Source of the DNA: Actinomycetes bacterium | Lineage (GTDB): Bacteria > Actinomycetota > Thermoleophilia > BMS3ABIN01 | Direction: 5' to 3' | Assembly (NCBI GenBank): GCA_021790115.1 | Contig: JAJYIM010000002.1 | Coordinates: 14,804-78,803 of the forward strand | Length of the DNA stretch: 64,000 nt | Part shown: one piece after another, positions 20,927-39,592 of the stretch | Numbering within the stretch: the stretch's first letter is position 1 | Layout: each line of letters begins with the position of its first letter | Position numbers and translations under genes: made by a program | Notes under the pieces: model-generated | Seen by the model: only the letters and a program-made list of their open reading frames with translations | Databases searched by the model: none | What the model was told of the DNA's origin: nothing

Positions 20927-22144
20927 TTACCACAGCTGCTTTGTTTTAAAGGCACCGATCAGAATGCCGGTGGCCGCCATTCCTGCTACGGCTCCGAACA
21001 GAAATGGCGCGAACGAGCCGACGCTGCCCCATAAAAGGCCGGCTATCAAGCTGGAGAGAAAGGTCAACAAACCGGTGGTAGTGTGGTAAGTTCCAATGGC
21101 GGTGCCGCGCATGTTCAAGGGGGCCATGTCGGCCGCAAACGCCTTGCCGACTCCTTCTGTCATCGCCATGTAGAGCCCGTAAACAGCGAACAGCGGCCAT
21201 ATCATTATCGAGCTCCTTGCCAAAGCGAAGCCCAGGTAGACCAGGGAAAAGACGATAAAACCAGCGGCAATCATGCGCCGGCGGCCAATCCGGTCTGACA
21301 GCGAGCCGGCCGGCATGGAAAAAATACTGTAGACCAGATTGTAGATCACGTAGGCGAAGACGGTGGCAAAGGCAGTAAGGCCCAGGTCGCGCGCCCTTAA
21401 AATGAGGAAGGCGTCGCTGGAATTGCCCAGCGCAAAGACTGCGCTTGCCAGCAGAAACATTTTGAACTTGCGGTCAAATTGTGAGATGGAAAGCCGCGGC
21501 GCCTCCTCTTGAGGATGCGGCCGACTTCGCTCGCGCACCAGCAGCAGGCTGGCGACGCCAAGGACGGCAGGAATTGCCGAGAGCAGAAAGATGGCGCGGT
21601 ATTTCTCCCCGATCAGCCCAAGGGCGGCCAGCGCCAGCAGGGCGCCCAGCGCCGCGCCGGCGGTGTCGGCCGCCCGGTGAAAGCCAAACACCCGCCCGCG
21701 GCAGTCAGGCTCACAGGAATCGGCGATAAGGGCGTCGCGGGGAGCGCCGCGGATTCCTTTTCCGAGGCGGTCGCCAAAGCGGAGCAGGAGGACGACAGGC
21801 CAGACGGTTGCGGCCGCCAGCAGCGGCTTGGACAGCGCCGATATCCCGTAACCAATGATCGTCAGGGGCCGCCGCCGGCGCATCCGGTCCGACAGCCAGC
21901 CAGAAAATATTTTCAGGGTGCTGGCGGTGCTTTCGGCTATGCCTTCGATCAGGCCCACCACCAGGAACGGCGCCCCCAGGACCGATGTCAGGAAGAGCGG
22001 CACCAGCGGATAGATAACCTCGCTGGAAAGATCGGTAAGGAAGCTGGTGACGCCGAGGATAAAAACATTGCGGCTGATGCCGGCAAACAGGGCTCTATTA
22101 CCGGCGGGCTCGCTGGTCGTTCTTTTATTGCGTAGCTTAGCCAA
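20927..22144 (-). CDS. MFS transporter
   Basis: 12 predicted hydrophobic spans, an MFS motif (SDRIGRRRMI), and a duplicated-halves topology. Confidence 0.75.
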   Translation of the reverse strand: MAKLRNKRTTSEPAGNRALFAGISRNVFILGVTSFLTDLSSEVIYPLVPLFLTSVLGAPFLVVGLIEGIAESTASTLKIFSGWLSDRMRRRRPLTIIGYGISALSKPLLAAATVWPVVLLLRFGDRLGKGIRGAPRDALIADSCEPDCRGRVFGFHRAADTAGAALGALLALAALGLIGEKYRAIFLLSAIPAVLGVASLLLVRERSRPHPQEEAPRLSISQFDRKFKMFLLASAVFALGNSSDAFLILRARDLGLTAFATVFAYVIYNLVYSIFSMPAGSLSDRIGRRRMIAAGFIVFSLVYLGFALARSSIMIWPLFAVYGLYMAMTEGVGKAFAADMAPLNMRGTAIGTYHTTTGLLTFLSSLIAGLLWGSVGSFAPFLFGAVAGMAATGILIGAFKTKQLW

Positions 22145-22489: not shown

Positions 22490-22570
22490 TTAAATTGACG
22501 TTTTTTTGTTACCACATCCGGCTTTTGGTTTATCCAGCATCCAGAGTCCACCATCCACCATCCGCTTTAC
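22490..22570 (-). promoter_or_regulatory. Reverse-orientation copy of the heptamer/A-C-tract cassette. On the minus strand it reads GGATGGTGGATGGTGGACTCTGGATGCTGGAT-AAACCAAAAGCC.
   Basis: The plus strand shows ATCCAGCATCCAGAGTCCACCATCCACCATCC. This is the reverse complement of the arm at 61149-61180. Confidence 0.55.
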
Positions 22571-23265
22571 GGCATCCCCGCATTCTCGAGGATGAAAACA
22601 AGCTCATCAATTACCCTTTGCTCCAGCGGCAGGGCGCGCAACTTGGCCACCGCCGCCCCCACATTGTAGTCCACCCGCTTCAACTCAACCTGCCCATCTT
22701 CAAGGACGGCGTAGCTGGCGGCGGCGATGCCGTCGCGCGGCTGGCCGATGCTGCCGACGTTGACCAGCAGCCGCCCGCTCACCTGGCGCGTAAAAGGTTT
22801 ATGCGTATGGCCCATCAGAACGATGTCGGCGCCGGCTACGCTTCCTTCCTCGTCCAGCTCGCTGTCTGGTGTTTCCGGCGTTACATATTTAAAGAGATGG
22901 TCGCTGGGGGCGGCGTGAACGGCAAAGACGCGCCGGCCGCCGCTTTCCAGCGCCAGGCTGGTTTGTGCCGACCCGGTCCAGGAAAGCTGCTCCGCGTCAA
23001 GCGCCTGCCACATGTACTTACGGGTCGCCAGGGAAAGGTGCAGGTAGGCCTGGCCGCAGCCGCAGTCCACCCGGAAGGCGACGGCATTGTCGTGGTTGCC
23101 GCGCACGCGCATGGCGCTGCGCTTGCGCAGCCAGTCAATACAAGACACCGGATCAGGTCCGTAGTCAACGACGTCGCCGAGGAACAGAACGGCATCAAAG
23201 GACTCGCTGATCGCCTCAAGCGCGTCGATGTTGGCATGGATGTCGGAGAGTACAAGAGTCCGCAT
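22567..23265 (-). CDS. Metallophosphoesterase (YfcE/MJ0936-like)
   Basis: LVLSDIHAN, GDVVDYGPDP, RGNHD, GHTH motifs. Confidence 0.7.
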   Translation of the reverse strand: MRTLVLSDIHANIDALEAISESFDAVLFLGDVVDYGPDPVSCIDWLRKRSAMRVRGNHDNAVAFRVDCGCGQAYLHLSLATRKYMWQALDAEQLSWTGSAQTSLALESGGRRVFAVHAAPSDHLFKYVTPETPDSELDEEGSVAGADIVLMGHTHKPFTRQVSGRLLVNVGSIGQPRDGIAAASYAVLEDGQVELKRVDYNVGAAVAKLRALPLEQRVIDELVFILENAGMP

Positions 23266-23325: not shown

Positions 23326-24639
<1,314 letters not shown>

Positions 24640-24660: not shown

Positions 24661-25481
24661 TTAGGGAATGGATCCGACACCCATGGCAATTGCATAAAAT
24701 ATCGGGATGAAATCGGTCGAAACAATGCTGCCTTCCTGGAGGTGATAACCAATGAGGGCAAAATCCGCATAACCGGCGGCAATGCATCCAGCTGCTGCCA
24801 TGTACAACCAGTATGAACTACCGTAGCCTTTGGCTGACAAGCCGACCGGTTTCTCTAAATCATGCGGCTTTGGGAAATAATGCCGGGCGACAAAAAGCGT
24901 CGTCATGGATAGAATTGCCGATACCAAAAGCAGGCTGTAGCCCAACCTGTAGCTACCATTCATAAGCAATATCAAAGACATGACCAATGGGCCCAGGGTT
25001 GCTCCCGCTTGGTCGAGCGCTTCGTATAGACCGAAGGCCCAGCCATGTCCAATATGGCCGCCGCTGTAAGACAACATGGCTTCAACCGGCGGCTTGCGCA
25101 TCGCCCGCCCGGCCCGTTCGGCAATCACCAAAGCTGCTGCCATCGGCAAGTTGCCGGCCAACGCCAGAGCCGGCACGGCGATAAGATTAATTGTGTAGCC
25201 TACAATTATGGTCAGCCAGTACCGGCCCGTCCGGTCAGCAAGAAAACCAAACATAGAACGCAGTCCATAGCCGGCGAGTTCACCAAAACGGCGGTAAAAC
25301 CTACGACGGCGGCCGATGCTCCCAGCGTGGCCAGAAACTGGCCGTTGATACTGTGGGCGGCTTCATGGGTAAAATCAGCAAACAGACTGGTGATACCGAT
25401 AACCACCACAAATCTGAAAGCCGTTTTAGCTAACAGACGGGTGTGACCCTCCACCTGGCTGCCTTTCGAGATCAAGCCCAC
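24661..25481 (-). pseudogene. MFS transporter split into two ORFs (25212-25481 N-terminal TM1-2, 24661-25254 remainder) and truncated
   Basis: Two overlapping ORFs in different frames. Their products are consecutive MFS segments. About 290 aa in total, against about 400 expected. Confidence 0.5.
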
Positions 25482-25632: not shown

Positions 25633-27786
25633 TCACCATGACGCTTGAATTAAATACATAACCAACACGGCCGCCAGCGCCGCCAGCGCATAAGTGGCGT
25701 AAGTGTTAAGCCTGCCCTGGTGCAGATATGCCAGCGCGCGTGCAACCCGCAATAACGCCGCCCTGACAGGATGGAAAACCAGTTTGTCTACAGGATGGGT
25801 GCGCTCCTGTTCACGCAGGATGGCGGTGCGGAAATGCCTGGTCACCGTCTCACGGGTATCCTCTACCGTTGTGGGCCTAAAGACAGCGTCGAACACCACC
25901 CGCACGGGATTGGAAAAACCAGTGGCTGTGTAAGTCATTTCCGGCAGCAGTCGCCGTATGCCCCCATCCCAGCGTTTTCGCTGCCTGAGCTTGCGTCTGC
26001 GTGTCAGCCAAAGGCGAATGACAACATAGGTCCCCCCCAGCAGCACGATCAGAGCAACTGCCATGTAAGAAGTGGACATGGCAAACACCACCGGGTTTTC
26101 CTCACCTCCACGGTGAAGCACTACCAGTCCCCGGCCGGGCAGAAAGCTCTGCCCTATCTGGGCGCCAAGATCGTGGAAGTCCTTTACAAACGTGGAAGGC
26201 AAGGCGCTGTGCGCCGGGTCCGAGGCGAAAAAGGGCGGCACCAGCGCGTCAGATGCGCTCGCTCCGGCCAAGGGGGCAACCGCCGGACTGAGTGTCGGAA
26301 TCACATATGTCGGCAACAGGCCAAATCCGAGGCAGAGCGCGGCAAGAATGAACATCGGCGCAAGCGTGCCGGCCCTGGCTTCCAAGAGTTGCCGGTTTTC
26401 ATTAAGGCGACGCATTCCCAGAAACCCCATGGCAAAAACCCTGACAAAACAGGTGACCGCCAGCGCCGCCGTCAGCGCCAGGCCGGCGCCGGCAAGGGCA
26501 AACACCAGTTTCACGGCTGCCGATGACAGTTCCGTCGAGCGCAGCATCGTCTGCAGTGTCAGCCATTCACTGACAAACCCGTTGAAGGGCGGCAGGGCCG
26601 AGATGGAGAGCGTACCGACCAGGAACGCAAGCGTGGCAAGCGGCATCCATTTGATCAATCCACCAAGATTGTTCAGATCGCGAGTGCCGGTTTGTTTTTC
26701 CACCTCGCCAACGCCGAAAAACAGCAGAGTCTTAAAAAACGAATGATTGATTAAATGATATAGCGCTGCCACAAACGCAATTGCCGCCGGGATTGGATGA
26801 TTCGTGGCAACGAAGACCATGCCGGCGCCAAATCCTGCAACAACGATGCCAACATTTTCAATCGAGCTGTGTGCCAGGATAACCTTAAGATCATTATCTG
26901 TGGTTGCATAAAGGATACCCACCAGCGCTGTAAGCGTTCCAATGACAAGCGCCACCAAGCCGGGCGCGGCATCAGTAGCCGGCATCAAGCCGGCATTTAC
27001 GCGCAGAATTCCGTAAAGGCCAAGATTTAAAGTAGCGCCGGCCAGCACAGGTACAAATGCCCGCGAGGCTGCTGTATAGGCGCGCGGCAGCCAGAAATTC
27101 ACAGGGACCAGCCCTGCTTTGACACCAAAGCCGAAAAATGTCAGCAAGAAGACCGCCCATCTGAGTCCGGAGCCCAAGCCGGGTGAGGTCCCCTGAATCG
27201 CGGAAAAATCAAGCGAGCCTGCGCCGGCCGCAAGTAAAAGAAAACCAAGCACTGCCGCGAGCGTGCCGGCCTCACCCATGGCCAGCAAGAGGAAACCAGA
27301 GTTTGCCTTGCCATCTTCCTGCTGCCGGGAAGCTACAATGAGCAGATAAGAGAAAATTGACATCGCTTCCCAGGCGAGCAGAAACGACAAAGCATCGCCG
27401 GCGATGAAAACGAGACCGATGGCGGCATAGAGCGCCAGCAGCAGCACTGTAAAAAGGCTACCGTTGGAAATTGCTCCTCGTTCCAGATGAGAGCTGGCAA
27501 AGATCGAGGCGGGGAAAAGCACCAGGCCCGTAACCAGCAAAAACACCGCCGATAGCTGGTCGATACCAATGGTCATCCTTCCAAGGTTGGGAAGCTCCCA
27601 CAGCGGCTGGAGGAAATTCTCACCGGATATGAGCGTACTGCTCCCTGCCAGCATCAATGCAATTGCGGCCAGGCAGCCTGTCACGGCAAGTATGCTGCCC
27701 TGACGCGTCCGCGGCATGGCCACCGCCAGCAGCGCCCCGGCGCCGCAGAGAGACAGGAAAGCAATAATGAAGGCCTGCGTCATCAT
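25633..27786 (-). CDS. Complex-I NuoL / HyfB / MrpA-like antiporter subunit of an Ehr/group-4-hydrogenase-like membrane complex
   Basis: 717 aa, polytopic, with NuoL/ND5-family conserved segments. Its ATG overlaps the upstream stop (ATGA). Confidence 0.7.
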   Translation of the reverse strand: MMTQAFIIAFLSLCGAGALLAVAMPRTRQGSILAVTGCLAAIALMLAGSSTLISGENFLQPLWELPNLGRMTIGIDQLSAVFLLVTGLVLFPASIFASSHLERGAISNGSLFTVLLLALYAAIGLVFIAGDALSFLLAWEAMSIFSYLLIVASRQQEDGKANSGFLLLAMGEAGTLAAVLGFLLLAAGAGSLDFSAIQGTSPGLGSGLRWAVFLLTFFGFGVKAGLVPVNFWLPRAYTAASRAFVPVLAGATLNLGLYGILRVNAGLMPATDAAPGLVALVIGTLTALVGILYATTDNDLKVILAHSSIENVGIVVAGFGAGMVFVATNHPIPAAIAFVAALYHLINHSFFKTLLFFGVGEVEKQTGTRDLNNLGGLIKWMPLATLAFLVGTLSISALPPFNGFVSEWLTLQTMLRSTELSSAAVKLVFALAGAGLALTAALAVTCFVRVFAMGFLGMRRLNENRQLLEARAGTLAPMFILAALCLGFGLLPTYVIPTLSPAVAPLAGASASDALVPPFFASDPAHSALPSTFVKDFHDLGAQIGQSFLPGRGLVVLHRGGEENPVVFAMSTSYMAVALIVLLGGTYVVIRLWLTRRRKLRQRKRWDGGIRRLLPEMTYTATGFSNPVRVVFDAVFRPTTVEDTRETVTRHFRTAILREQERTHPVDKLVFHPVRAALLRVARALAYLHQGRLNTYATYALAALAAVLVMYLIQASW

Positions 27787-28538
27787 TCGCCGGTCGCGTT
27801 GGCTTGGGAGGACCCGGGCTGCAGATCAACCGGAGGTTTGCGCCCGGCAGCCACCAGCAGGCCATGCAGGATCGCCAGCGGCGGCGGCGGGTTACCCGGC
27901 ACCTCCACGTCAACCGGCAATATGTCGGTTACGCCCTCGGAGCAGGTAAAACTTTCCGCAAACACCCCGCCAGAAAGCGCGCAGACGCCGGCAGCCACTA
28001 CCCGCTTGGGTGTCGGTATGGCGTTGTAAATTTTTTGCAGCGCCAGGCTCATATGATCGGTCCCCGGACCCACCACCAGCAGCACATCTGCATGACGCGG
28101 TGTAGGTGTGATAAAAAATCCCAGCCTGTGGATGTTGTAATACGGGCTGCTGAGTTGCCTGACTTCGTTAAGGCATGAGCCACAATCACCGGCATCCACG
28201 ACGCAGATATTGATGGATTTCCTGAAAGCCGGAAGAAGATTCTTTTTCTGGTTGCTTTCAACTCCCCATTCGTAAGTTGAATCCCATCTTGCCGGCTGTT
28301 CGACCCCGCGAACACAGCGGTAGCAATGGATGCAGCGGTCCACATCCACATTCACCCGGCCGTTGATGATAGTGAATACTTGTGTGGGGCAGATATCCAC
28401 CAGCGCCCGGGCTGCGCCGGTATCCATCTGGCTGCTGACCGGCAGTCCGGGTGTGACGCCAGCGGCGGTTTCCGCATTGCGTGGGTACGCACTGGTTTTA
28501 ATTCCCGTGCGAATGCCTTTGATGACCCAGGGGCTCAT
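27783..28538 (-). CDS. Fused ferredoxin-like / NuoB-like small subunit, with degenerate cluster ligands
   Basis: N-terminal DICP...CIHCYRC, which is one [4Fe-4S] motif. The NuoB-like part has DCGSC and GVCALSGG, but the PGCPP position reads PGNPP. Confidence 0.6.
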   Translation of the reverse strand: MSPWVIKGIRTGIKTSAYPRNAETAAGVTPGLPVSSQMDTGAARALVDICPTQVFTIINGRVNVDVDRCIHCYRCVRGVEQPARWDSTYEWGVESNQKKNLLPAFRKSINICVVDAGDCGSCLNEVRQLSSPYYNIHRLGFFITPTPRHADVLLVVGPGTDHMSLALQKIYNAIPTPKRVVAAGVCALSGGVFAESFTCSEGVTDILPVDVEVPGNPPPPLAILHGLLVAAGRKPPVDLQPGSSQANATGE

Positions 28539-28569
28539 TTATTCGCCCTTTCTCTTTTCATTTTTTTCT

Positions 28570-30147
28570 TCACCTGTCGTTCTCGGCGACCGACAGGTCG
28601 AAGGTGGCGAGCATTATGGGAAAATCCTGAAATGCAAAATTTTCGACAGCGACGTGAAACCCGTGCCAGTTCGCAAATGAAGGCGGGGCGACGTGATAGC
28701 GGGTGACAAATCCGCGCTCATCGAGGCGCACCCAGTGAAACGCTGCTCCCCTGGGCGCTTCAACCCACCCCAGAGCTGCTCCCTCGCGAGGTTTGAACGA
28801 TTCCAGGACGCCACCTCCCGGCATTGCGGCAACAGTCTGTTCCATGATATGTACCGACTGCCTGCATTCGGAAAAAAGCACCCGCAGCCGCGCGTAGCCG
28901 TCGCCCTCCTGCTCGCTCGGCACCTCGAACCGAAATTGCGAGTAGCCAGAATATGGCTGTTCGCGCCGGAGGTCGTGAGCTACCGCCGAGGCACGCGCGA
29001 CCGGACCCAGCAGGCCGTAAGCAGCGGCGACCTGCTGCTGTACGTAGCCGACCTCCTCGAGGCGGTCAAGGAAACTGCTCGAAACACGGAGCTCCGTTTC
29101 AAGATTATCGAGTTGTTTCAGGACCGCTTGCGATTTGTTCAGCGCTTGGCGGCAGTCGTTGTCAGGCAGGTCCAAAAGCAATCCACCCGGGGCCAGCATG
29201 CCGAACAGGTAGCGATGGCCGGTAAGCTCTCCGGAGATACGTAACAGGTCTTCCTCGAAAATTCCCGCTTCGCTGGCGGCGACGGCGAGTGCCGTGGACT
29301 CGCAGATTTCCTGAATCGCGCCGGCATGCTGACGCAAACGTTCCAGCTCCGCCAGAAACACCCGCAGGCCTGCCGCCCGCGGCGGGATGTCAGCGGCGCA
29401 CGCCGTTTCGACAGCTTGGCAAAAGGCCAGTCCGTGGGCAAAAGCGGTTGTGGCCGCAAACCGCTCCGCTAGCAGCAGGACCTCGTCGGCCGGCTTGCCT
29501 TCGGCAATTTTTTCTATGGCGCGCCATTTGTAAAACAGGCGGGGCATGAAACGAATCACATCTTCCCCCACGGTTTCAAGCAGAAAGTGAACCGACTCGG
29601 TGACGCCCGAATACTTTGGACCCACCGGCATCACAAACGCGCCCGATTCCTGAACTATGCGGCGCGGCCGCCAGTCGGCTGCGGGTTTGCGATAGCGGAT
29701 AGCCATTTGTGGATCAAAATGATGCCGCATTGGGTCGACGTTTTCCTGCCAGGCGTCATCGTGCAGGATAAAATCGCCGAGACGGGGATGGCCTTCAAAG
29801 GTGAGTCCGAACATATCCTCGGCCTCGCGCTCGTGCCAGTCGGCGGCATGGACAAATTTGACTATGCTCGGGAAAGTCTCCTCAGAACAGAGGGCGCTCG
29901 CCAGGACATGGACCCAGCCGCTGCCGGCCCCGCCATAAAAAATGTAGCGCAACCGCCACGCTGCCGGCATTTCCTCAACGATCAAATTAGCAAAATTAAA
30001 GTCCTTATCAATGAAAAGCCAGCCGCATAACTCCGCCAGCGACGCACGGGCGCAGGTGATTTCGCACAAGTCGCTTCTGTCATCGTAACGGCACTTGGCA
30101 TGCCCCGCCCAGCGCTCTTTAACTTGTTCTTTCAGCCCAAGCTCCAT
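28570..30147 (-). CDS. NuoC-NuoD fusion, large-subunit homolog of group-4 [NiFe] hydrogenases, lacking all four Ni-Fe cysteine ligands (Ehr-type)
   Basis: Where the N-terminal RxCGxCxxxH motif should be, the sequence reads ERFAATTAFAH. Where the C-terminal DPCxxCxxR motif should be, it reads FDLSVAENDR. The rest is clearly NuoD/HycE-like (GPKYSGV..., EAPRGAAFHWV, PPSFANW). Confidence 0.65.
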   Translation of the reverse strand: MELGLKEQVKERWAGHAKCRYDDRSDLCEITCARASLAELCGWLFIDKDFNFANLIVEEMPAAWRLRYIFYGGAGSGWVHVLASALCSEETFPSIVKFVHAADWHEREAEDMFGLTFEGHPRLGDFILHDDAWQENVDPMRHHFDPQMAIRYRKPAADWRPRRIVQESGAFVMPVGPKYSGVTESVHFLLETVGEDVIRFMPRLFYKWRAIEKIAEGKPADEVLLLAERFAATTAFAHGLAFCQAVETACAADIPPRAAGLRVFLAELERLRQHAGAIQEICESTALAVAASEAGIFEEDLLRISGELTGHRYLFGMLAPGGLLLDLPDNDCRQALNKSQAVLKQLDNLETELRVSSSFLDRLEEVGYVQQQVAAAYGLLGPVARASAVAHDLRREQPYSGYSQFRFEVPSEQEGDGYARLRVLFSECRQSVHIMEQTVAAMPGGGVLESFKPREGAALGWVEAPRGAAFHWVRLDERGFVTRYHVAPPSFANWHGFHVAVENFAFQDFPIMLATFDLSVAENDR

Positions 30148-30170
30148 GTCTGCCTTATCTTGTCAAAGCA

Positions 30171-31649
30171 CTAGCGGCCTGAGTCAGCAGGTTCTGCAGC
30201 GGTTGCGGGATGTACATACAGTCCCAGCACCAGCACCGGAGCCGCAGACAGTATCATTGCAAGCCGGCAGGTGAACGGCAGGCGAAATTTGTGCTCAACT
30301 GTGTAATCATAAGGCGTATTTTGCATTACGCCATCATCTGGCAGACCAAATACCATCTGGTTGATTTTCAACATGACCCCAAAAAAGGCAATCAGGATGA
30401 AAAGAGACAGAAGGCCCATCGCCACATAATCAGTCTGCGACAGGCCGGCCCTGAGAATGGAAAGTTCACTTAAAAAAACTGCTAGTGGCGGCGCGCCGGT
30501 GATGGCCAGCCCGCCAAAAACCAAAGCGGCGCCAGTGAAGGGAGACCGGCGGATAAGTCCTCGCACAGAGGCGATTTTGCGTGTTCTCAGATTCAGCAAA
30601 ACGGCGCCCGCGGCAAAGAAACAAAATGATTTTGTTACGCTGTGGCTGATGATTTGTTGCAGGGCGGCGTAATCAGCGCCCGCCGCGCCTATCCCGACGG
30701 CCGTTAGTATTATGCCCATGTGCTCGACCGTGGAGAAAGCAAACATACGCTTGTAATCGCCGACTTGCAGCAGCAGGAATGCAGCCGTTCCGGCAGATAT
30801 CAGGCCCAGCACGATCGCCCAGGTAGTGGCGTGCGCGCCCGGCGTGGCCTGCATGATTGGAAACAGCCGCAAAATGACGTAAAGGATGGCCGAAGTTTCA
30901 ATGCCGGAAAGCAGGGCGCATACCGGCGAGGGCGCCTGGCTGTGCGCATCTGGCAGCCAGGTGTGCATAGGCACCAGCCCGACCTTTGTTCCAAGGCCGA
31001 TCAGGATCAGCAAAAACGCAACCTGCAGCAGTGCCGGTGGCATCCCGGGCCCGGCCTGGGCCAGCCCGCTCCAGGTAAAGGCGGCATCGCTGCCTGATGC
31101 CTGCAGGGCCGAGAACAGCAGCAGGAAACCGAAAAGCGCCATGCCCGCGCCCATAAGCGAGAGCACCACATATTTCCATGCTGCCTCCAACGCCTCGCGA
31201 GTATCCTCAAAGGAGACAATGAGTGCAGAAGTTAGCGTTGTCAGCGCTACCGAGATCCATACCAGTGTCGGCTCAGCGAGGATGGGAATGGCGAGCATGG
31301 AAAAAACAAACAAATTGAAATTGATGTAGTAAATTCGTATTTTACGGGGCGGGAAATTTCCATGCGCCATATAGCCCACGGAGTAAATTGCCGCTGTGGT
31401 ACCGATGAAGGCGACCAGCAGCAGGATGAGTCCGCTCAAGCCGTCAACGGAAACCCATTTCAGCAAGCCGATTCCGAGGGCCGATGTAACTATCTTGCCT
31501 GTTGAGACAAAGAGCGCCACCCGGACGGCCAGAACCAGAATTACGAGTGAAGAAACAACAGTGATGACGCCAGCCCAATATTGCTTGAGCGGAAGCAGAA
31601 TGAGCGCTGATGCAATTAATGGCATACCCAAAATAAAAGCGATGCTCAT
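30171..31649 (-). CDS. NuoN/NuoM / HyfF-like proton-pumping antiporter subunit
   Basis: 492 aa, about 14 TM, complex-I antiporter family motifs. Confidence 0.7.
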   Translation of the reverse strand: MSIAFILGMPLIASALILLPLKQYWAGVITVVSSLVILVLAVRVALFVSTGKIVTSALGIGLLKWVSVDGLSGLILLLVAFIGTTAAIYSVGYMAHGNFPPRKIRIYYINFNLFVFSMLAIPILAEPTLVWISVALTTLTSALIVSFEDTREALEAAWKYVVLSLMGAGMALFGFLLLFSALQASGSDAAFTWSGLAQAGPGMPPALLQVAFLLILIGLGTKVGLVPMHTWLPDAHSQAPSPVCALLSGIETSAILYVILRLFPIMQATPGAHATTWAIVLGLISAGTAAFLLLQVGDYKRMFAFSTVEHMGIILTAVGIGAAGADYAALQQIISHSVTKSFCFFAAGAVLLNLRTRKIASVRGLIRRSPFTGAALVFGGLAITGAPPLAVFLSELSILRAGLSQTDYVAMGLLSLFILIAFFGVMLKINQMVFGLPDDGVMQNTPYDYTVEHKFRLPFTCRLAMILSAAPVLVLGLYVHPATAAEPADSGR

Positions 31650-32347
31650 CCGGCCTCCTCGCTTCCCGCAGGCACAGATACGTTTTCCTTAAGATTGGCC
31701 AGCTCTCCCACCGCGGTCGTGCCAACATGCCTGTGGACTGCGCGCGTTAGCACGCCCATGATAAAAACAACGATCAGACCATCGGTGGCAATCGCCAGCT
31801 CCACCAGGAGCGGCAATTTCCGTGAGATGGCAATGCCGCTTAAAAAGGCGCCGTTTTCCATGGCCAAGATGCCAATCAGCAGCGGCACAGCTTCCCGCCG
31901 CACCGTGATTGTAAATGCTCCGAGCAGGAGGCCGGCTATGCCAATCGGCACGTTGGGACCTCGAAATTCAGGCGCTACCGCATTCAGCAACGGCTGCCCC
32001 AAAAAATAAGCCAGAATCACCAGCGCCAGTGCAATCAGGAGTGCCGTTGGGATATTCAGCGCCTGGTTAACTTCCCGGCGCGTGTAAACTTCCTCTGGAG
32101 CGGTCTTTTTCAGGAGCCAGGGAAGGATCAGCGGCTTGATGATAACGTTCACCAGGGCGACGCCGTAAAGGTGTTCCGATTGATACCTGAGGCCTAGAAA
32201 CAGGGCAGACAGGGCCAGCAAAATTGACTGGAAGATAAACAGGTTGAGGACGCCGCGGGTCTGCCGCATGGCTACAATTCCAAAGGCGGTCAGCAGAAAC
32301 AACCCGGTGACAAGCGCGTTTAAATTGTCAAGAAGCTGATCTGTCAC
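31646..32347 (-). CDS. HyfE-like small membrane subunit
   Basis: 233 aa with about 6 TM, placed where hyfE sits in hyf/ehr operons. Confidence 0.5.
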   Translation of the reverse strand: MTDQLLDNLNALVTGLFLLTAFGIVAMRQTRGVLNLFIFQSILLALSALFLGLRYQSEHLYGVALVNVIIKPLILPWLLKKTAPEEVYTRREVNQALNIPTALLIALALVILAYFLGQPLLNAVAPEFRGPNVPIGIAGLLLGAFTITVRREAVPLLIGILAMENGAFLSGIAISRKLPLLVELAIATDGLIVVFIMGVLTRAVHRHVGTTAVGELANLKENVSVPAGSEEAG

Positions 32348-32360
32348 AACTGTTTTCTTT

Positions 32361-33311
32361 TCATAGCAAAAAAACCTGAGCGATCATCGCCACTACGCAG
32401 ATTACAAAAGCGGCGCCTAAAAATTCCGAGATGCGAAACAGCCTCAACTTGGCAAGTGAAGACTCGATGACTACCAGCACGAGCAAAAGAGCGAAAATTT
32501 TCAGAAGCACCGCGGGAATAGCCAGCAATACAGCGCTTATTGTCTGCCCGCCGGCCAGGCCCCAAGGAGCCACCAGCACGTTGAGAAAAATGCACATGAG
32601 AACGAACAGCTTCATGGTCCCGCCCCATTTCACCAGGGCCAAGCCCCGCCCCGAGTATTCGAGCGACTTGGATTCATCGATCATCGCCAGCTCGAAATGG
32701 CCGGCCGGGTTGTCAACCGGGATACGCCCCCCTTCGGCCAAAATCAGTATCAGAAACGCCAGCAGGAGCAGCACATGGGTCGGCATGAAAAAATTGGTTG
32801 CCGGAGTAACCCATTTTTCCTGGACAATATAAGGAATTGTCGAGCCGGCAACAAATGACACGGTAAAAAACACGATCATGAATACCGGCTCCGCCAAAAA
32901 GCCAACCATCCGCGTGCGGCTTGCCCCCATGGGCCCATAAGGACTTGCCGTGTCAATCGCCGCGAGCGTAGCAAAGAATCCACCAAGCGCCAGCGCGAAT
33001 CCGCCGCCGATCATGTCTCCCATGAAGGCAAAAAAGAGCGGATAGCGCGTCAGCACTGGGATCAGCAAAGTTACGTAAATCGGAGTGATAAAGATCATGT
33101 AGGGGGTAAATCGGAAGATCCAGGAGCTTTCTTCCGAGACGATCTCGTCCTTATGAAAGAGCTTCCATAAATCGCGATAAGGCTGGAAGATGCTGGGTCC
33201 GTGTTTGGACTGCACCATTTCCTTTAAGCGGGTTGTCACGCCGGAAACAAGCGGCGAAAAAGCCAACACGACGAGCACCTGGATCAGATTGAACACGATC
33301 TTATTCGCCAT
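32361..33311 (-). CDS. NuoH / HycD-like membrane subunit
   Basis: 316 aa. N-terminus LIQVLVVLAFSPL...RLKEMVQSKHGPSIFQPYRDL is typical of HycD/NuoH. Confidence 0.7.
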   Translation of the reverse strand: MANKIVFNLIQVLVVLAFSPLVSGVTTRLKEMVQSKHGPSIFQPYRDLWKLFHKDEIVSEESSWIFRFTPYMIFITPIYVTLLIPVLTRYPLFFAFMGDMIGGGFALALGGFFATLAAIDTASPYGPMGASRTRMVGFLAEPVFMIVFFTVSFVAGSTIPYIVQEKWVTPATNFFMPTHVLLLLAFLILILAEGGRIPVDNPAGHFELAMIDESKSLEYSGRGLALVKWGGTMKLFVLMCIFLNVLVAPWGLAGGQTISAVLLAIPAVLLKIFALLLVLVVIESSLAKLRLFRISEFLGAAFVICVVAMIAQVFLL

Positions 33312-33435: not shown

Positions 33436-35286
33436 TCAGCGCACCTTGTTGTTTATAGTCTTATGCTTTGCGGGCTCCGCTGCGGCGGCCTCTTCAATCC
33501 CGGCCAGCTCCTGCCTGGCCTGCTCGAACCCGAGCAGCCTGAGGCGCAGTTCTCCCTCGAACCGCCGCAGTTCGGCCTCGCTTTTTTGCTTGGCCTCGCT
33601 GCCGGCCAGCAGGGCCCGGCGGATGCTCTCCTCGGTGCCGTTGACCGTCTCGTCGAGACCGGTGCGGAACTGCTGCAGTGTGGCCTGGATCCTTTCGCTG
33701 AAGTCATGGCGCAGGCGGCCGCAGTGGCGGTCGATCTGCTTTTCCATCCGCTCCCGCGCTTCTTTCAGGATCAGGCGGTGGCCCAGCCGCCTCGGCATCA
33801 GCAGCGTCGCTGATTCCGTCATCGCCTCCAGCGAAACCTTGACATCCTCGTCCAGCTTGAACTGGAAGCGGGACTCGGCCGCCAGGGCCTCGTCGATGGC
33901 AAATGGCTCAATGCTGACGTCAAAGATGCGGGCGGAGATGTCAACCAGGCGGGCGATGATGCTGTTTGTGCGCGCCACCAGCCGGTTGATAATCTGCGCC
34001 AGCATCTCTTCCAGCTTCTTTTCCTCCTGCTCCTGGAAGTCGGTAAAAATATCACGGATGCGGTCGTGCACGTACCGGTCAAACAGCCGCGCCAGGGCGC
34101 GGTTGCTTTCTTTTTTGATTTTTTGATAATACGTGTTAACACTGGCCGCGGCAGCGCCTGTCTGGCCGGCCTTCAGTCCTTTTAAGTCTTCTTCCAGGAC
34201 CGTAGCGATCAGCTCCGCTGTTTCCGCCTTTAGCAGCCGGTTGCTGTCCTGGCGCTCCTGATTGATCTCCGCCTGCGCCGATTCGAACATGCGCATTTTT
34301 CCCTCCAGGTCTTGAAGCGGCTCGCTCAGGCTTTTTTGCATCAGTTGCGCGGAAAAAGCTTCCTGGGATATCAGGTTTCTGATTTTGCCGGTGGCCGAAA
34401 TCAAAAAAACCCGCCCCTTTTCCCCAAGCAGGAATCCATCCAGCATGTTTTCAAAAGCGGGCAGCCCGCTTTCCTCAAGCATGGCCGGGTTGGGCGCTGT
34501 CTTTCCTTCCAGAGCCTGCCTGGCCGACAGGGGAAAGATCTCCACGTTCTTGAGGCCGGCCTGCTCCTCGATTATCTGCCTGGTGAACTCAAGGGATTCC
34601 TGCCTGTCGGCGGCGCTGACCATGTCAACCTTGTTGAGCACGAAGAAGATTCTGGTGGCGTACCCCTTGAGGTCGCCGAGGAACTTAAGCTCCGCCGCCG
34701 TGATCGGCGGGTCGACGCTGATCATGAACACGGCCGCGTCCGCATGGGGCAGGTAGCGGTAGGTCGTGCCCGTATTGTGACCGTACACCGAGGCAACGCC
34801 GGGCGTGTCGATGATCTGGACGCCGTTTTTCAGGTATGGGGACGGATAAAGGATCTCAACCCTGCCAACATTTTTCTCGTTTTTGGGGTTGTGCTTTTCC
34901 GTGATATAAAGCGGCAGGTCGGCGGCGCCAATCTCCCGCCGGGAGCCGTCACTGAAGAAAACCTGTGTCTGCAGAGCCTCGCCAAACTTGATGATGGTGA
35001 TGATGGATGTCAGCGGAATGATCGCCGTCGGCAGCAGGTTTTCTCCCAGGACGGAGTTGATAAAGGTGCTCTTGCCGCGCTTGAACTGGCCGGCGACCAC
35101 CAGCGAAAATTCGTTGCCGGCGATTTTGCGGCCCAGCGCCGCGAGCGACTTTTTGGCCGCCTCGCTCCCGGCCGCGTCCTGGAGCCGGAACGGCACCTGC
35201 GCCAGGCGCTCTTTAAGTGTTGAGTAAGTATCAGGCACGACAATAAAAAAGCTCCCGCAGTCATCTGCAGAAGCCATAAGCCCCAA
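33436..35286 (-). CDS. Bacterial dynamin-like GTPase
   Basis: G1 GQFKRGKST, G3 DTPG, G4 NKVD, then a long helical stalk region. 616 aa. Confidence 0.75.
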   Translation of the reverse strand: MGLMASADDCGSFFIVVPDTYSTLKERLAQVPFRLQDAAGSEAAKKSLAALGRKIAGNEFSLVVAGQFKRGKSTFINSVLGENLLPTAIIPLTSIITIIKFGEALQTQVFFSDGSRREIGAADLPLYITEKHNPKNEKNVGRVEILYPSPYLKNGVQIIDTPGVASVYGHNTGTTYRYLPHADAAVFMISVDPPITAAELKFLGDLKGYATRIFFVLNKVDMVSAADRQESLEFTRQIIEEQAGLKNVEIFPLSARQALEGKTAPNPAMLEESGLPAFENMLDGFLLGEKGRVFLISATGKIRNLISQEAFSAQLMQKSLSEPLQDLEGKMRMFESAQAEINQERQDSNRLLKAETAELIATVLEEDLKGLKAGQTGAAAASVNTYYQKIKKESNRALARLFDRYVHDRIRDIFTDFQEQEEKKLEEMLAQIINRLVARTNSIIARLVDISARIFDVSIEPFAIDEALAAESRFQFKLDEDVKVSLEAMTESATLLMPRRLGHRLILKEARERMEKQIDRHCGRLRHDFSERIQATLQQFRTGLDETVNGTEESIRRALLAGSEAKQKSEAELRRFEGELRLRLLGFEQARQELAGIEEAAAAEPAKHKTINNKVR

Positions 35287-35407
35287 AGGGCGCTTCAGGC
35301 GAGCTTCATCGCCTCTTAAAATATGCTCTATTCAATAGGAAATATAACAATTTGACTGTTTCTGGGCAAGGCTTTTTTATTATCGCGGTCATAAACGAGT
35401 GATTATT

Positions 35408-36888: not shown

Positions 36889-37359
36889 TCAGCTTTTTCC
36901 CTCCAGCTCCTTGCGGCGCGGCTCAGGCTCCCCGCCGCCGGCGGCTCCAAAACCTGCCTGGGCGGGGGCGTTTGTCCAAACCTGGAAGCTGCGTGTAGAA
37001 GCTGCTTTTTGCAGCCGTCTCCTCGCGTAGGCGCGCACCGGCCTCCGCGCCGGAGGAAGCAACAGCAGCAGCCCGGCGGCGTCGGTGATGTAGCCCGGCG
37101 TAATCAACAGGGCCGCCGCGGTCAGGATAAGCGCCCCGTCAATAAGGGCGTCCGCCGGGACGCGGCCGTTATTTATTTCTGCCTGGATTTGCGCCACGGC
37201 GCGGTAGCCCTCCCGCTTGGCCAGCGCCGCGCCACAAATGCTTACGAGGATTAGCAGCGCGATCGTGTAAAAGTAGCCGATCCGCGCGCCGATCTCGATA
37301 ATCACCAGCAGTTCCAGCAAGGGAACGGCAATAAATAGTATCAGCAGTTTCCGGAACAC
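36889..37359 (-). CDS. fxsA: FxsA-family cytoplasmic membrane protein
   Basis: LLELLVIIEIG...ALAKREG, a conserved FxsA core, and a charged C-terminal tail. Likely GTG start at 37359 after GGAGGGGG; the ORF track extends to 37608. Confidence 0.55.
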   Translation of the reverse strand: MFRKLLILFIAVPLLELLVIIEIGARIGYFYTIALLILVSICGAALAKREGYRAVAQIQAEINNGRVPADALIDGALILTAAALLITPGYITDAAGLLLLLPPARRPVRAYARRRLQKAASTRSFQVWTNAPAQAGFGAAGGGEPEPRRKELEGKS

Positions 37360-37487
37360 AGTTTCATTGTCCCCCTCCGCCGGGGGAAAAAACAAGGAAA
37401 CCGCCAGACGGGTCCGGCGGGGCGCGCCAGTGATTTGCCGATTAAGCCGGTGGGCGGCCGCCCACCGGCGCCAGACCGGGTGCGGGA

Positions 37488-37541
37488 GCACAGCCGGCTC
37501 GCTCGGCCTCGCTGCGAACAGCCCTTTGAGATAGATTCTTA
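37488..37541. repeat. Copy of the MITE-like element end (GCTCGGCCTCGCTGCGAACAGCCCTTTGAGATAGATTCT)
   Basis: About 50 nt are near-identical to 48858-48905. Confidence 0.5.
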
Positions 37542-37783
37542 CAACTTTTATAGGGCAAATATCATGCCAAAGTTGGATGAGGAAACTGCCGGGAATTGAT
37601 ATAATCAAATTGGGGTGCCCCGGTGCCAGGTTTGTTGTGCAAATTCCAGATTTGTATTAAATCGCTCCGCGAAAATCCCGGCGAAAGTCCCGGCGGTGCT
37701 CCGAAATCATTTTCCGTCCGGCGCAGATGATAAATTGCCTCCAGGCAACTGGGAGGGAAAGCCGGACAAGCGCGGAGGTTGAA

Positions 37784-39592
37784 ATGGACTCAGGCAGCTT
37801 AAAACAGAAGCTTGGCCGAGTTGACGGAAAAGGCTACAAAGCATACCGCCAGTTAAAAGGAAGGTATGATTTTCCCCGCTTCACCCTGCATATCGACCAT
37901 GTTCAATCCGACCCTTTTGCCGCGCCGTCGCGGATGCGCGTCAGGGTAAATCAGGCCGTTGCCAGGTTTGACACCAGCTTATTTAAAGGCAAGGTCCGCC
38001 GGGTGGCCCTTGAGGACTACCTCGCCAGGGCCTTTGCCAGGGCAATTGAACGGTTTGTCAAAGGAGATCGCGGCACGGGAAAATCGGGCCTTGTGGGAGT
38101 GGACCGGGGCGGCCAGGAGATCATCGAGCGGACTGCCGCGGTTATAAATGAGCGCTTTGCCGAGGTCAGATTTCTTGCCGGGCTACCCGCAGCCGGCAGG
38201 CGCTGCCTCGGGCAGGAGGCAGCGGCCATGCTTTTGGAGGAGGTTCCCCGCCTTGTTGAGGCAACGCTTTTCTATGAGGCTCTCGGCCGGCGGATGGTAA
38301 CTGCGCATGTTGAAGGCGCCGAAGACCAGGACTGGTTGCGCCGGCAACTGCCGGCCCTGGGCCTGGTTGCTTTTGTGGCTGACGGCGCCGTCCTGCCGCG
38401 GCAAAGCGGGATCAGCGACATGCCGCTCAGGCAGGGCCGGGTGCTCAAGTTCCAAAGCCCCGCCGGGCTGCGGCTTGCCATTGACCTTCCCCACCGTGGC
38501 CACCTGTCCGGAATGGGGATCCCGGAGGGCGTCACTCTCATTGTTGGCGGCGGCTACCATGGTAAATCGACCTTGCTTAAGGCGCTGGAGCGCAGCGTTT
38601 ACAACCACGTGCCGGGTGATGGCCGCGAGCTGGCGGCCACCCGGGGCGACGCGGTCAAGATCAGGGCGGAAGATGGGCGCCGGGTTGAGAAGGTCAATAT
38701 CAGCGCTTTTATCTCAAATCTCCCCTTTGATGTTGACACTTCTTCTTTTTCTACCGAAAACGCCAGCGGCAGCACGTCGCAGGCGGCCAACATCCTGGAG
38801 GCGTTGGAAGCGAGGTCAAGGCTGCTGCTCATTGACGAAGACACCTCCGCCACCAATTTCATGATCCGGGATAGCCTCATGCAGCAACTGGTCCTGAAAA
38901 AGAAGGAGCCGATCACACCATTTATTGATCATGTGCACAACCTAAAGAGCGAGCACGGGGTGTCCACGGTGCTGGTAATGGGCGGCTCCGGTGATTATTT
39001 TGGTGCGGCCGATACGGTCATTGCCATGGAAAATTATCTGCCCCGGGTGGTCACGGCCCGCGCCCGCGAGATAATTGCGCAGCGCAAGGACGTTCGCAGC
39101 GCCGAAGCCCCTGCCGGGTTCGGGCCCCTGACGCCGCGCCTGCCGCTGGCGCGCGGCATCGACCCCCGCCGGGGCGGCAAGGTAAAAATCAGCGCCAAAG
39201 GCCTGAAAGCCGTTTCATTTGGAAGAATAATGGTTGACCTGGCCGCCGTGGAGCAGATTGTTGATATTAGTCAGACTCGTGCTATTGGCTACCTGATCTG
39301 GTACGGACTGCGGCAGGGGTACTTTGACGGCGAGTCATCAATCACGGAGATTCTGGACCGCCTCATCGCCGATGTGGAGCGCTTTGGCCTCGAAGTGATT
39401 GCAGCGGGCGCCTCCCGGCAGCCGGCCCCTGGGCCAGGACAGGCAGAGGCCGGCGGCCGCGCCGCAGCGGCGTCCGGTCAAACCGCCCCCGGGCCGGCAA
39501 TTGGCGAGGAGCATCCCGGGGACTTCGCCCTTCCCCGCCGCTTCGAGATCGCAGCGATGCTAAACCGGATGCGAACGTTGCAAGTCAGATAA
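37784..39592 (+). CDS. Predicted ABC-class ATPase (COG3044 / ABC_ATPase family)
   Basis: Walker A GGGYHGKSTLL, conserved FTLHIDHVQSDPFAAPS N-terminal domain. About 600 aa. Confidence 0.7.
   Translation: MDSGSLKQKLGRVDGKGYKAYRQLKGRYDFPRFTLHIDHVQSDPFAAPSRMRVRVNQAVARFDTSLFKGKVRRVALEDYLARAFARAIERFVKGDRGTGKSGLVGVDRGGQEIIERTAAVINERFAEVRFLAGLPAAGRRCLGQEAAAMLLEEVPRLVEATLFYEALGRRMVTAHVEGAEDQDWLRRQLPALGLVAFVADGAVLPRQSGISDMPLRQGRVLKFQSPAGLRLAIDLPHRGHLSGMGIPEGVTLIVGGGYHGKSTLLKALERSVYNHVPGDGRELAATRGDAVKIRAEDGRRVEKVNISAFISNLPFDVDTSSFSTENASGSTSQAANILEALEARSRLLLIDEDTSATNFMIRDSLMQQLVLKKKEPITPFIDHVHNLKSEHGVSTVLVMGGSGDYFGAADTVIAMENYLPRVVTARAREIIAQRKDVRSAEAPAGFGPLTPRLPLARGIDPRRGGKVKISAKGLKAVSFGRIMVDLAAVEQIVDISQTRAIGYLIWYGLRQGYFDGESSITEILDRLIADVERFGLEVIAAGASRQPAPGPGQAEAGGRAAAASGQTAPGPAIGEEHPGDFALPRRFEIAAMLNRMRTLQVR

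Follow-up and report, generated by a model that had tools for sequence, protein, structure and literature searches.

A gene cluster of Geobacter sulfurreducens, GSU0739-45, reportedly encodes an energy-converting hydrogenase-related (Ehr) complex, of the kind said to have been treated by Coppi in 2005 and Marreiros in 2013. Ehr complexes figure in the literature (PMC7894505, PMC6349859, PMC10284858), and their role is uninvestigated (PMC7894505, PMC10284858). Here we analyse a stretch of 64,000 nucleotides, referred to throughout as the window, from an Actinomycetes bacterium (assembly GCA_021790115.1, contig JAJYIM010000002.1, positions 14,804 to 78,803 of the forward strand), in which an initial annotation made from the sequence alone had recognised a six-gene operon related to complex I and group 4 hydrogenases. 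We report that this operon very probably encodes an Ehr complex that lacks the Ni-Fe site and is linked to a fluoride riboswitch.

Several described systems resemble the encoded complex in part. The Geobacter complex combines a group-4-related large subunit devoid of CxxC Ni-Fe motifs with the same set of subunits (named here according to PMC7894505). The formate hydrogenlyase (FHL) complexes FHL-1 and FHL-2 of E. coli (Hyc, PDB 7Z0S, and Hyf) provide relatives in HycE and HycG, HyfE-, HyfF- and HyfB-like membrane subunits, and a NuoC-NuoD fusion. Complex I (NDH-1) possesses a homologous Q-module (NuoB, C, D, I) and P-module (NuoH, K-like, L, M/N-like). Pyrococcus MBS (also MBX), which we take to be the subject of PDB 6U8Y and a Ni-Fe-less relative of MBH, has likewise lost hydrogenase chemistry and kept an Fe-S wire together with an ion-translocating arm. 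Mrp antiporters, finally, have in common with it two MrpA/MrpD-type (PF00361) subunits and a NuoK/MrpC-like segment, and a role in pH homeostasis is plausible on that basis.

The fluoride riboswitch has been studied along a separate line. Its crcB RNAs precede genes named 'formate hydrogen lyase' in a listing that dates from 2010 (PMC2864571), and a 2024 review counts FHL and Na+/H+ antiporters among the commonest riboswitch-associated genes, discusses FHL as a means of formate oxidation during fermentation, and ties fluoride stress to the homeostasis of pH and proton motive force (PMC11139923). Our literature search found no paper linking Ehr with fluoride, and nothing relevant that joined the fluoride riboswitch with hydrogenase-related, hyf, hyc, Mrp or NuoL.

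A six-gene cassette of Ehr type

The list of open reading frames (ORFs) contains six co-directional ORFs on the minus strand between positions 25633 and 33311, where the initial annotation had placed them. The first, EhrB (32361..33311; 316 aa), is a NuoH/HycD-like membrane anchor (PF00146 NADHdh, 3e-31), and is followed by EhrC (31646..32347; 233 aa), a HyfE-like protein (HyfE equivalog NF008556, 1.9e-25) whose C-terminal half is NuoK-like (PF00420, 9e-6). EhrD (30171..31649; 492 aa) is an antiporter-type subunit resembling NuoN/M and HyfF (PF00361 Proton_antipo_M), whose highest-ranking NCBIfam matches are models of hydrogenase-4 subunit F. EhrL (28570..30147; 525 aa) is a NuoC-NuoD fusion and HycE-like large subunit that matches Complex1_30kDa, Complex1_49kDa and the N-terminal end of NiFeSe_Hases, with domain scores of 1.4e-46 for PF00346 and 1.4e-8 for PF00374 (NiFeSe_Hases, first 66 positions only). 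In EhrS (27783..28538; 251 aa) a truncated HycF/NuoI-like domain is fused to a NuoB/HycG-like domain (Fer4_Nqo3 and Oxidored_q6), and the last gene encodes EhrA (25633..27786; 717 aa), a NuoL/HyfB-like antiporter-type subunit with a C-terminal extension (PF00361; best NCBIfam NF005086, hydrogenase-4 subunit B, 6e-147).

These matches to Pfam, NCBIfam and PDB bear out the six subunit identities first proposed. The genes are contiguous and co-directional, as had been noted; overlapping stop and start codons, ascribed to the operon in general, occur at only two of its five junctions (EhrC/EhrD and EhrS/EhrA, 4 nt each), the other three being gaps of 13-31 nt. The predicted architecture is that of E. 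coli hydrogenase-4/FHL and of the complex I Q- and P-modules, and the Ehr subunit set is complete in one cluster (NuoL-like EhrA, NuoH-like EhrB, HyfE-like EhrC, antiporter-like EhrD and NuoB-like EhrS). The six genes include no NuoA, NuoJ or N-module gene, and the cassette proteins yielded no Pfam or NCBIfam matches to MrpB, MrpE, MrpF or MrpG, their antiporter-type content, compared with the seven-subunit MrpA-G set, being confined to two PF00361 subunits and one NuoK-like segment.

All six genes are under purifying selection, with ratios of nonsynonymous to synonymous substitution (dN/dS) of 0.05-0.23 against three relatives, synonymous divergence being near saturation in these comparisons. 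We considered whether the cassette might be a decaying relic, and ruled this out on the grounds of its intact ORFs, these dN/dS values and the rigid gene order in 70 related loci. A chance feature is likewise ruled out by the pattern of conservation, which comprises more than 2500 homologues in addition to the rigid order and low dN/dS.

Loss of the Ni-Fe ligands from EhrL

The best solved relative of EhrL is E. coli HycE (PDB 7z0s_E; phmmer, E 3.9e-55), followed by Nqo4, NuoCD, MbhL and the MBS large subunit; 6u8y_L matches at 2.3e-27. In the phmmer/HMMER alignment to HycE, the segment ERFAATTAFAH lies opposite DRVCGICGFAH, and FDLSVAENDR opposite LDPCYSCTDR. The four Ni-Fe cysteine positions are occupied by A231, T234, S519 and E522, and no offset cysteine pair is present in that alignment. 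When about 66 family members were aligned with HycE, HyfG and NuoCD using MAFFT, the replacement proved to be family-wide: C241 is represented by A or S, C244 by T, S or A, C531 by S (64 of 66) and C534 by E (65 of 66). The claim that all four cysteines had been replaced is thereby confirmed, and profile alignment of the 525-residue subunit establishes that it did not arise from misaligned motifs.

EhrL stops at R525, the counterpart of the HycE cleavage-site arginine R537, and has no C-terminal processing peptide. Searches by tblastn with E. coli queries detected no HypA-F, HycI, HycH or HycB in the window or in the 70 related loci with 10-kb flanks, and no homologue of fdhF was found within the same limits; the absence of maturation genes and of a processing site, on which the first interpretation depended, is substantiated as far as these sequences extend. 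A weak HypE match at 17762-18340 was rejected as an AIR-synthase-family gene. We conclude that the complex is predicted to be unable to bind the Ni-Fe cofactor, and for that reason is neither a hydrogenase nor a formate hydrogenlyase.

Residues implicated in coupling are retained in EhrL, namely the β1-β2 loop Glu (E184), R229, H238 and the canopy Arg (R466). By alignment to 2fug_4 and NuoCD, the equivalents of the quinone-headgroup ligands His38 and Tyr87 of T. thermophilus Nqo4 are Thr183 and Ala232.

Retention of a predicted two-cluster Fe-S wire in EhrS

EhrS has its best solved relatives in HycG (1.5e-25) and MbhJ, and its N-terminal 110 residues resemble HycF (E 5e-7). For one of the HycF clusters all four ligands (C1-C3, C8) have been lost together, and for the other all four are kept, comprising the CP cysteine C50 and the motif C69xxC72xxC75, each conserved in 97-100% of sequences. 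This is the single CxxCxxC...CP set originally recognised in the ferredoxin module. Judged by the ligand pattern of Nqo9, the kept cluster is presumably N6b-like and adjoins N2.

C119, C122 and C186 of the NuoB-like domain also reach 97-100% conservation, the arrangement C119xxC122 being of hydrogenase type and not the tandem CC of complex I. The PGNPP motif aligns with PGCPP of HycG and MbhJ, with Asn replacing the canonical C216. Of the 59 sequences, 39 have N, Q, H, S, D or A at position 216, and 33 of these 39 have Cys199; Cys216 is present in the other 20, of which 19 are without Cys199. The tally is thus 33 sequences with the one against 19 with the other, one sequence having both and six neither. 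This mutual exclusivity suggests a ligand swap and not the loss of a cluster, with Cys199 as the candidate replacement ligand, and may reflect one or few evolutionary events. The earlier observation that three of the four N2 cysteines remain is correct for the canonical positions and fails as an indication of cluster loss, Cys199 probably compensating. An AlphaFold2 model of EhrS computed with 33 close homologues had a mean pLDDT of 41.5 and was unusable for placing Cys199 relative to the N2-like cluster. Altogether, EhrS is predicted to retain ligand sets for two [4Fe-4S] clusters, one N6b-like in its HycF-like domain and one N2-like in its NuoB-like domain.

Conserved residues of the membrane subunits

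EhrB, which is 71-86% identical across phyla, keeps equivalents of the HycD glutamates E138, E189, E203 and E206 (E141, E193, E207 and E213, respectively); mutations of HycD E138 and E203 were among those that nearly abolished FHL activity in vivo (PMC9474812). Conserved residues of EhrA include E140, K223, D299, H344, H348, K352 and E407, which correspond to NuoL/HyfB E144, K229, D303, H334, H338 and K342 and the glutamate of transmembrane helix (TM) 12. EhrD retains the expected residue at four of the five positions checked: K222 (the TM7 Lys), H310, H336 and E395 (the TM12 Glu).

Stand-alone EhrA/NuoL-like paralogues, 55-62% identical to EhrA, occur singly or in pairs after the cassette in about 14 loci (at 14919-17060 in L003, 15033-19336 in L004, 18760-20883 in L016, 14957-17080 in L025, and in about 10 more). 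A fluoride riboswitch of their own accompanies some of them, an enolase gene comes next after some, and these paralogues may be the 'Na+/H+ antiporters' that have been counted in the fluoride regulon.

A fluoride riboswitch upstream of the cassette

An Rfam scan of the entire 64-kb window matched a single family, the fluoride riboswitch (crcB motif, RF01734), whose aptamer lies at 35261..35322 on the minus strand (cmscan, 44.5 bits with a gathering score of 34; E 4.4e-9; full model 1-64). Base pairing between GAAGC in its P1 loop (35307-35303) and GCUUC (35274-35270) can form the pseudoknot. The terminator scan identified an intrinsic terminator at 35242..35275 on the same strand, formed by an 11-bp stem (GGCUUCUGCAG/CUGCGGGAGCU) with the loop AUGA and a U-run, the 5' arm of which contains the same GCUUC that forms the 3' strand of the pseudoknot. 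Because the terminator overlaps the pseudoknot strand in this manner, the arrangement is, as predicted from its pairing, the expression platform of a transcriptional ON switch. It matches the behavior described for crcB RNAs, in which ligand binding holds the strand, blocks the terminator and raises expression (PMC2864571), and an aptamer with an overlapping terminator operating as an ON switch is what the window shares with the fluoride riboswitch regulon at large (RF01734; PMC11139923). A sigma-70-like promoter candidate (35341..35369, minus strand; TTGCCC, 17 nt, TATATT, with a TG extension) is located about 20 nt upstream of the riboswitch. It is a consensus pattern match, and matches of this sort are as numerous there as expected from shuffled sequence.

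Next after the riboswitch comes the gene for a dynamin-like GTPase (33436..35238, minus strand; PF00350 Dynamin_N, 3e-26). The initial annotation had correctly identified this product immediately upstream of the cassette and had extended its reading frame to 35286; since the terminator occupies 35275-35242, the ORF probably starts instead at GTG 35238, the first in-frame start beyond it. Between the dynamin stop (33436) and the start of EhrB is a gap of 124 nt in which the scan found no terminator. The locus would constitute a fluoride-inducible operon made up of promoter, riboswitch with overlapping terminator, dynamin-like gene, and then EhrB, C, D, L, S and A. This mode of regulation was missed in the initial annotation, and its recurrence, documented below, indicates that the whole clade belongs to a fluoride-stress regulon.

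Distribution of the cassette and of its riboswitch

Protein homologues numbered 2581 at E <= 1e-10, the best 120 being 71-85% identical, and carry annotations such as 'formate hydrogenlyase subunit 5', 'Ni,Fe-hydrogenase III large subunit' and 'NADH-quinone oxidoreductase subunit C'. A genome scan provided the 70 related loci, which according to database records represent Verrucomicrobiota, Acidobacteriota, Nitrospirota, Planctomycetota, several proteobacterial classes, NC10, Chlamydiota, Spirochaetota and others. Many of the carriers are recorded as metagenome-assembled genomes (MAGs) from peat bog and other acidic soils, and the family is about 70-86% identical across phyla. The order B-C-D-L-S-A is kept in every locus of sufficient length except L044, where the cassette is disrupted.

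Of these loci 58 had enough intact upstream sequence to be eligible, and a same-strand fluoride riboswitch, recognised by a regular expression or by the Rfam gathering score, precedes the cassette in 54 of them. The regular expression placed a same-strand site upstream of EhrB in 40, and Rfam added 14 among the regex-negative loci; three more loci gave sub-threshold Rfam matches (L067, 31.2 bits; L046, 26.1; L040, 32.6), and only the disrupted L044 was without any upstream match. In its strict form the expression returned 79 riboswitch-like sites in 1.2 Mb versus none in reversed sequences; it was used in place of a covariance model built from the first 15 matches, which was dropped on account of poor MAFFT alignment of the variable P3/insert region. 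The first recognised gene downstream of the 98 sites in total was EhrB at 38, CrcB at 12, a MutS-related gene at 11, AAA at seven, DUF190 at six, metallophosphoesterase at three, dynamin and an antiporter-like paralogue at two each, and enolase at one. Two loci, L001 (the closest relative) and L040, display the order seen in the window, from riboswitch to dynamin to cassette.

More distant relatives delimit the association. Four loci of 38-51% identity (L075-L078) have the order B-C-D-L-S-A and a riboswitch before the first gene, with the ferredoxin encoded separately in L078 (B-C-D-L-Fd-S-A). By comparison, no riboswitch accompanies L082, a hydrogenase relative with all four cysteines (CCCC) and the order A-B-C-D-L-S, or L086, a Cys-less relative of SSSG type with the order A-B-C-D-L. 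The fluoride link thus appears to track the clade in which the L-like gene (EhrA) stands last, on the evidence of one control of each kind; two further Ehr-type contigs, L080 and L081, lacked 5' ends and were left out of this comparison. A link common to all Cys-less relatives was rejected, L086 having no riboswitch. The ferredoxin-NuoB fusion also occurs in L082, and so is not special to the riboswitch-linked clade.

A search of 1.84 billion representatives recovered 6343 relatives, and 97 full-length examples included sequences with all four cysteines as well as several Cys-less types. In a rough neighbor-joining (NJ) tree of 108 sequences, rooted on NuoCD and constructed without bootstrap, a HydDB reference set or Geobacter EhrL, the CCCC sequences (HycE and HyfG included) are basal and the window clade (x, T/S, S, E) is a monophyletic group nested in a large radiation of Cys-less sequences. 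This provisional position, the homology to group 4 and NuoD without L1/L2 cysteines, the absence of processing, hyp and hycI, and the Ehr subunit set combine to support the original assignment to the Ehr type.

Genes neighboring the cassette

All flanking ORFs were clustered, and their identities confirmed with Pfam. The recurrent neighbours (window included in each count) are DUF190 in 24 loci, enolase in 20, CrcB in 18, dynamin-like GTPase in 16, MutS_V-domain proteins, often paired, in 13, a 237-aa AAA ATPase in 13 and metallophosphoesterase in eight; this is, by predicted product, the gene repertoire of the fluoride riboswitch regulon.

The window's metallophosphoesterase (22567..23265, minus strand) belongs to a type that recurs in seven related loci and is the first recognised gene after a riboswitch at three sites. 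Enolase, a classical gene of the fluoride regulon (PMC11139923), was counted 23 times across 19 related loci, and 16 of the copies lie downstream of the cassette on its own strand. The window copy (23326..24603, minus strand), also downstream of the cassette, carries two frameshifts in its N-terminal domain, the frame breaking off beyond roughly codon 55 and resuming some 45 codons later, and is either a pseudogene or an assembly error. Directly 3' of the cassette and co-directional with it is an MFS transporter gene (24661..25481, minus strand) that is split by a frameshift into 89 aa and 197 aa and is of uncertain membership in the unit; an intact MFS paralogue lies at 20927-22144. Upstream the operon is flanked by genes for an FxsA-family membrane protein (36889-37608, minus strand) and an ABC_ATPase/MRB1590-type P-loop protein (37727-39592, plus strand), a flank that is repeated in L001.

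The 16 loci with dynamin-like genes contain 18 of them (including L001 4965-6776, L040 3613-5433 and a gene in L045), seven with a riboswitch at most 1.5 kb upstream and the others trailing the cassette; homologues exist in L075 and L078 as well. Several directly follow the 237-aa AAA ATPase gene with its own riboswitch (e.g., in L003 and L007). Three 20-kb loci from soil or bog MAGs, L020 (four sites), L045 (five) and L036 (four), constitute dense 'fluoride islands', with separate fluoride riboswitches on both strands governing the cassette as well as crcB-DUF190, MutS_V pairs, metallophosphoesterase and dynamin. Downstream of the Ehr cassette in L078, an HEARO RNA (RF02033, 107.8 bits; 13111-13334, plus strand) beside an RRXRR/HNH-type ORF appears unrelated.

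Comparison with described systems

Relative to the Geobacter complex, the window clade may be set apart by the order B-C-D-L-S-A, the fluoride riboswitch and the company of crcB, DUF190, enolase and MutS-related genes. With E. coli Hyc and Hyf the window complex shares its β1-β2 loop Glu, canopy Arg and E-channel glutamates; unlike them, it has no Ni-Fe cysteines, processing peptide, HycB/HyfA, FdhF, HycH, HycI or Hyp, its HycF homologue has shrunk to a single cluster and is joined in one protein with the HycG homologue, and the gene for its L-like subunit is last in the operon and not first. With complex I it shares an acidic residue at the fourth hydrogenase Cys position and the antiporter-type Lys, Glu and His residues, but it lacks the N-module, NuoA, NuoJ, equivalents of His38 and Tyr87 and the tandem CC, has only two antiporter-type subunits, and in the NJ tree places EhrL with hydrogenase-4-like sequences and not with NuoCD. 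MBS differs in having 13 subunits, an Mrp-type sodium module, a polysulfide substrate and no fluoride link, whereas the window complex has only six subunits and is closer in sequence to Hyc/Hyf.

Agreement with the fluoride regulon extends to gene content, since crcB, enolase, mutS-like, phosphoesterase and 'formate hydrogen lyase' genes are all found around window-type cassettes. The literature takes the FHL-annotated genes to be formate-oxidising and H2-evolving, whereas the sequences examined here are those of a Ni-Fe-less Ehr. Our comparison indicates that the fluoride-linked 'FHL' and this Ehr type would be the same object, one unable to make hydrogen. Dynamin-like GTPases are a further point of difference, in that our literature search did not find them named as members of the regulon, nor any paper naming fluoride, riboswitch and dynamin together.

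Proposed function and alternatives

Fluoride enters cells as HF, which dissociates in the cytoplasm, and F- leaves through the electrogenic Fluc/CrcB channel; because each cycle of HF entry and F- exit brings in a proton and a positive charge, the effect of fluoride would resemble that of a protonophore. Against this background we tentatively favor, at a confidence that stops a little short of probable, a role of the complex as a redox-driven ion pump serving proton motive force and pH homeostasis under fluoride stress, a proposal with which the conserved two-cluster wire, the E-channel and the antiporter residues are in accord. As fluoride rises, the bound aptamer would keep the pseudoknot strand from the terminator and the operon would be transcribed. 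Electrons from a soluble low-potential donor, of which ferredoxin would be the likeliest by analogy with NDH-1 and MBH, would enter at the exposed N6b-like cluster and pass through the N2-like cluster to an acceptor in the former Ni-Fe/quinone pocket. The redox reaction would drive the expulsion of H+ (or Na+) through EhrB, C, D and A, and this pumping would repay the proton and charge that enter with each cycle of HF influx and F- efflux via Fluc/CrcB, maintaining the membrane potential that drives F- export and protecting cytoplasmic pH.

A broader version of this proposal, possible and in our view open to considerable doubt, is that a horizontally spread Ehr clade was recruited as a fluoride-defence engine, that is, a fluoride-induced, Fe-S-wired primary pump energising Fluc/CrcB, with a dynamin-like GTPase, an AAA ATPase and MutS-related proteins regulated alongside it as partners under membrane or DNA stress.

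Several observations weigh against the pump. Recurrent neighbours include no electron-donor module (FdhF/HycB, CooS and the like), the tblastn search for HycB being negative, and EhrL, having neither Ni-Fe cysteines nor equivalents of His38 and Tyr87, allows no acceptor to be named. The TM5 Glu position of EhrD is Ala135 in the window and Ala in L001, and among 71 aligned sequences it is Glu in 54 and Ala in six (the window, L001 and four others). Other riboswitch-linked clades have different residues at the four Cys positions (A,S,V,S; S,S,S,D; S,S,S,G). That EhrA paralogues stand alone under their own riboswitches suggests that the antiporter-type subunit may be useful by itself, which would fit a non-redox transporter. 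Finally, 1.9 kb, taken up by the dynamin gene and the 124-nt gap, separate the window riboswitch from EhrB, and read-through from it into the cassette is inferred from the related loci.

The alternative that best survives, which we nevertheless consider unlikely, is a redox-silent, Mrp-like secondary cation/proton antiporter in which the EhrL/EhrS arm would be a structural or regulatory relic; Na+ or K+ would be exchanged for H+, so that the pH gradient behind HF accumulation would fall and the membrane potential be preserved. The missing donor module and recognisable catalytic or quinone ligands, the paralogues of about 14 loci and the dispensability of the EhrD TM5 Glu in the window lineage are all in its favor, as is the rank of Na+/H+ antiporters as the second commonest class of fluoride-riboswitch genes (PMC11139923). 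Set against it are the seven canonical Fe-S cysteines, 97-100% conserved, the purifying selection on EhrL and EhrS (dN/dS 0.07-0.23) and the persistence of the hydrogenase β1-β2 loop Glu and canopy Arg. The ligands of one HycF cluster have been lost as a set, those of the N2-adjoining cluster kept, and a fourth Cys apparently preserved by a swap, a pattern that would be costly without an electron wire. Mrp antiporters also differ in composition, since the window complex has no homologues of MrpB, E, F or G and instead has NuoH-, NuoCD- and NuoB-like subunits with conserved Fe-S ligands.

A minimal ferredoxin:quinone oxidoreductase, resembling photosynthetic NDH-1 on a smaller scale and acting as an alternative respiratory entry switched on by fluoride (which inhibits enolase and phosphoryl-transfer enzymes and so shifts metabolism), has in our estimate a rather slender probability. 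The two-cluster wire of such an enzyme would end, as here, at the EhrL/EhrS/EhrB interface; the fourth Ni-Fe Cys position is Glu, similar to the Asp of NuoCD; EhrB F105 and G111 are common to NuoH and not to HycD; and carriers are by their records mostly acidic soil and bog MAGs. The replacement of the His38 and Tyr87 equivalents by Thr and Ala/Gly argues to the contrary, as do the hydrogenase-type CxxC, in place of a tandem CC, in the NuoB domain, the lack of NuoA and NuoJ, and the fact that the nearest sequence neighbours are of hydrogenase-4 and not Nuo type.

It is very improbable that the former Ni-Fe pocket itself handles fluoride, with Mg-F or HF bound by Ser, Thr and Glu in a primary fluoride/HF extrusion device or sensor. 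The hard O-donors T234, S519 and E522 are conserved within the window clade, and the riboswitch link is tight and clade-wide; however, the differing residues of other riboswitch-linked clades leave no ligands that all share, the pocket is turned toward the cytoplasmic side of the EhrB cavity, many loci also encode dedicated F- exporters (crcB), and we know of no anion path in the complex I/hydrogenase superfamily. A genuine formate hydrogenlyase or group-4 [NiFe]-hydrogenase, the identity found in databases and seemingly favored by the annotations of homologues, by HycE as best solved relative and by the hyf-like gene set, is refuted at the sequence level, given the replacement of the four cysteines in every family member, the missing C-terminal extension for a HycI/HyfK protease, and the lack of hyp, hycI, fdhF and hycB homologues in the window and the 70 flanked loci.

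Significance

Ehr complexes, known for roughly two decades, and fluoride-riboswitch operons had each been described before; what is new is the riboswitch and regulon context that joins them. The Ehr field gains from it a testable condition, fluoride or HF stress, especially at low pH; for fluoride research it adds to the exporters Fluc and CLC-F a candidate component for energy coupling. Should the redox-driven pump prove to be a fluoride-defence engine, this would be the first physiological function for any Ehr complex, and the 'formate hydrogen lyase' entry of the regulon would be corrected. As the family is so closely conserved across phyla and abundant in acidic-soil MAGs, the complex may matter for fluoride tolerance in acidic environments, and also for the engineering of organisms that release fluoride from organofluorines.

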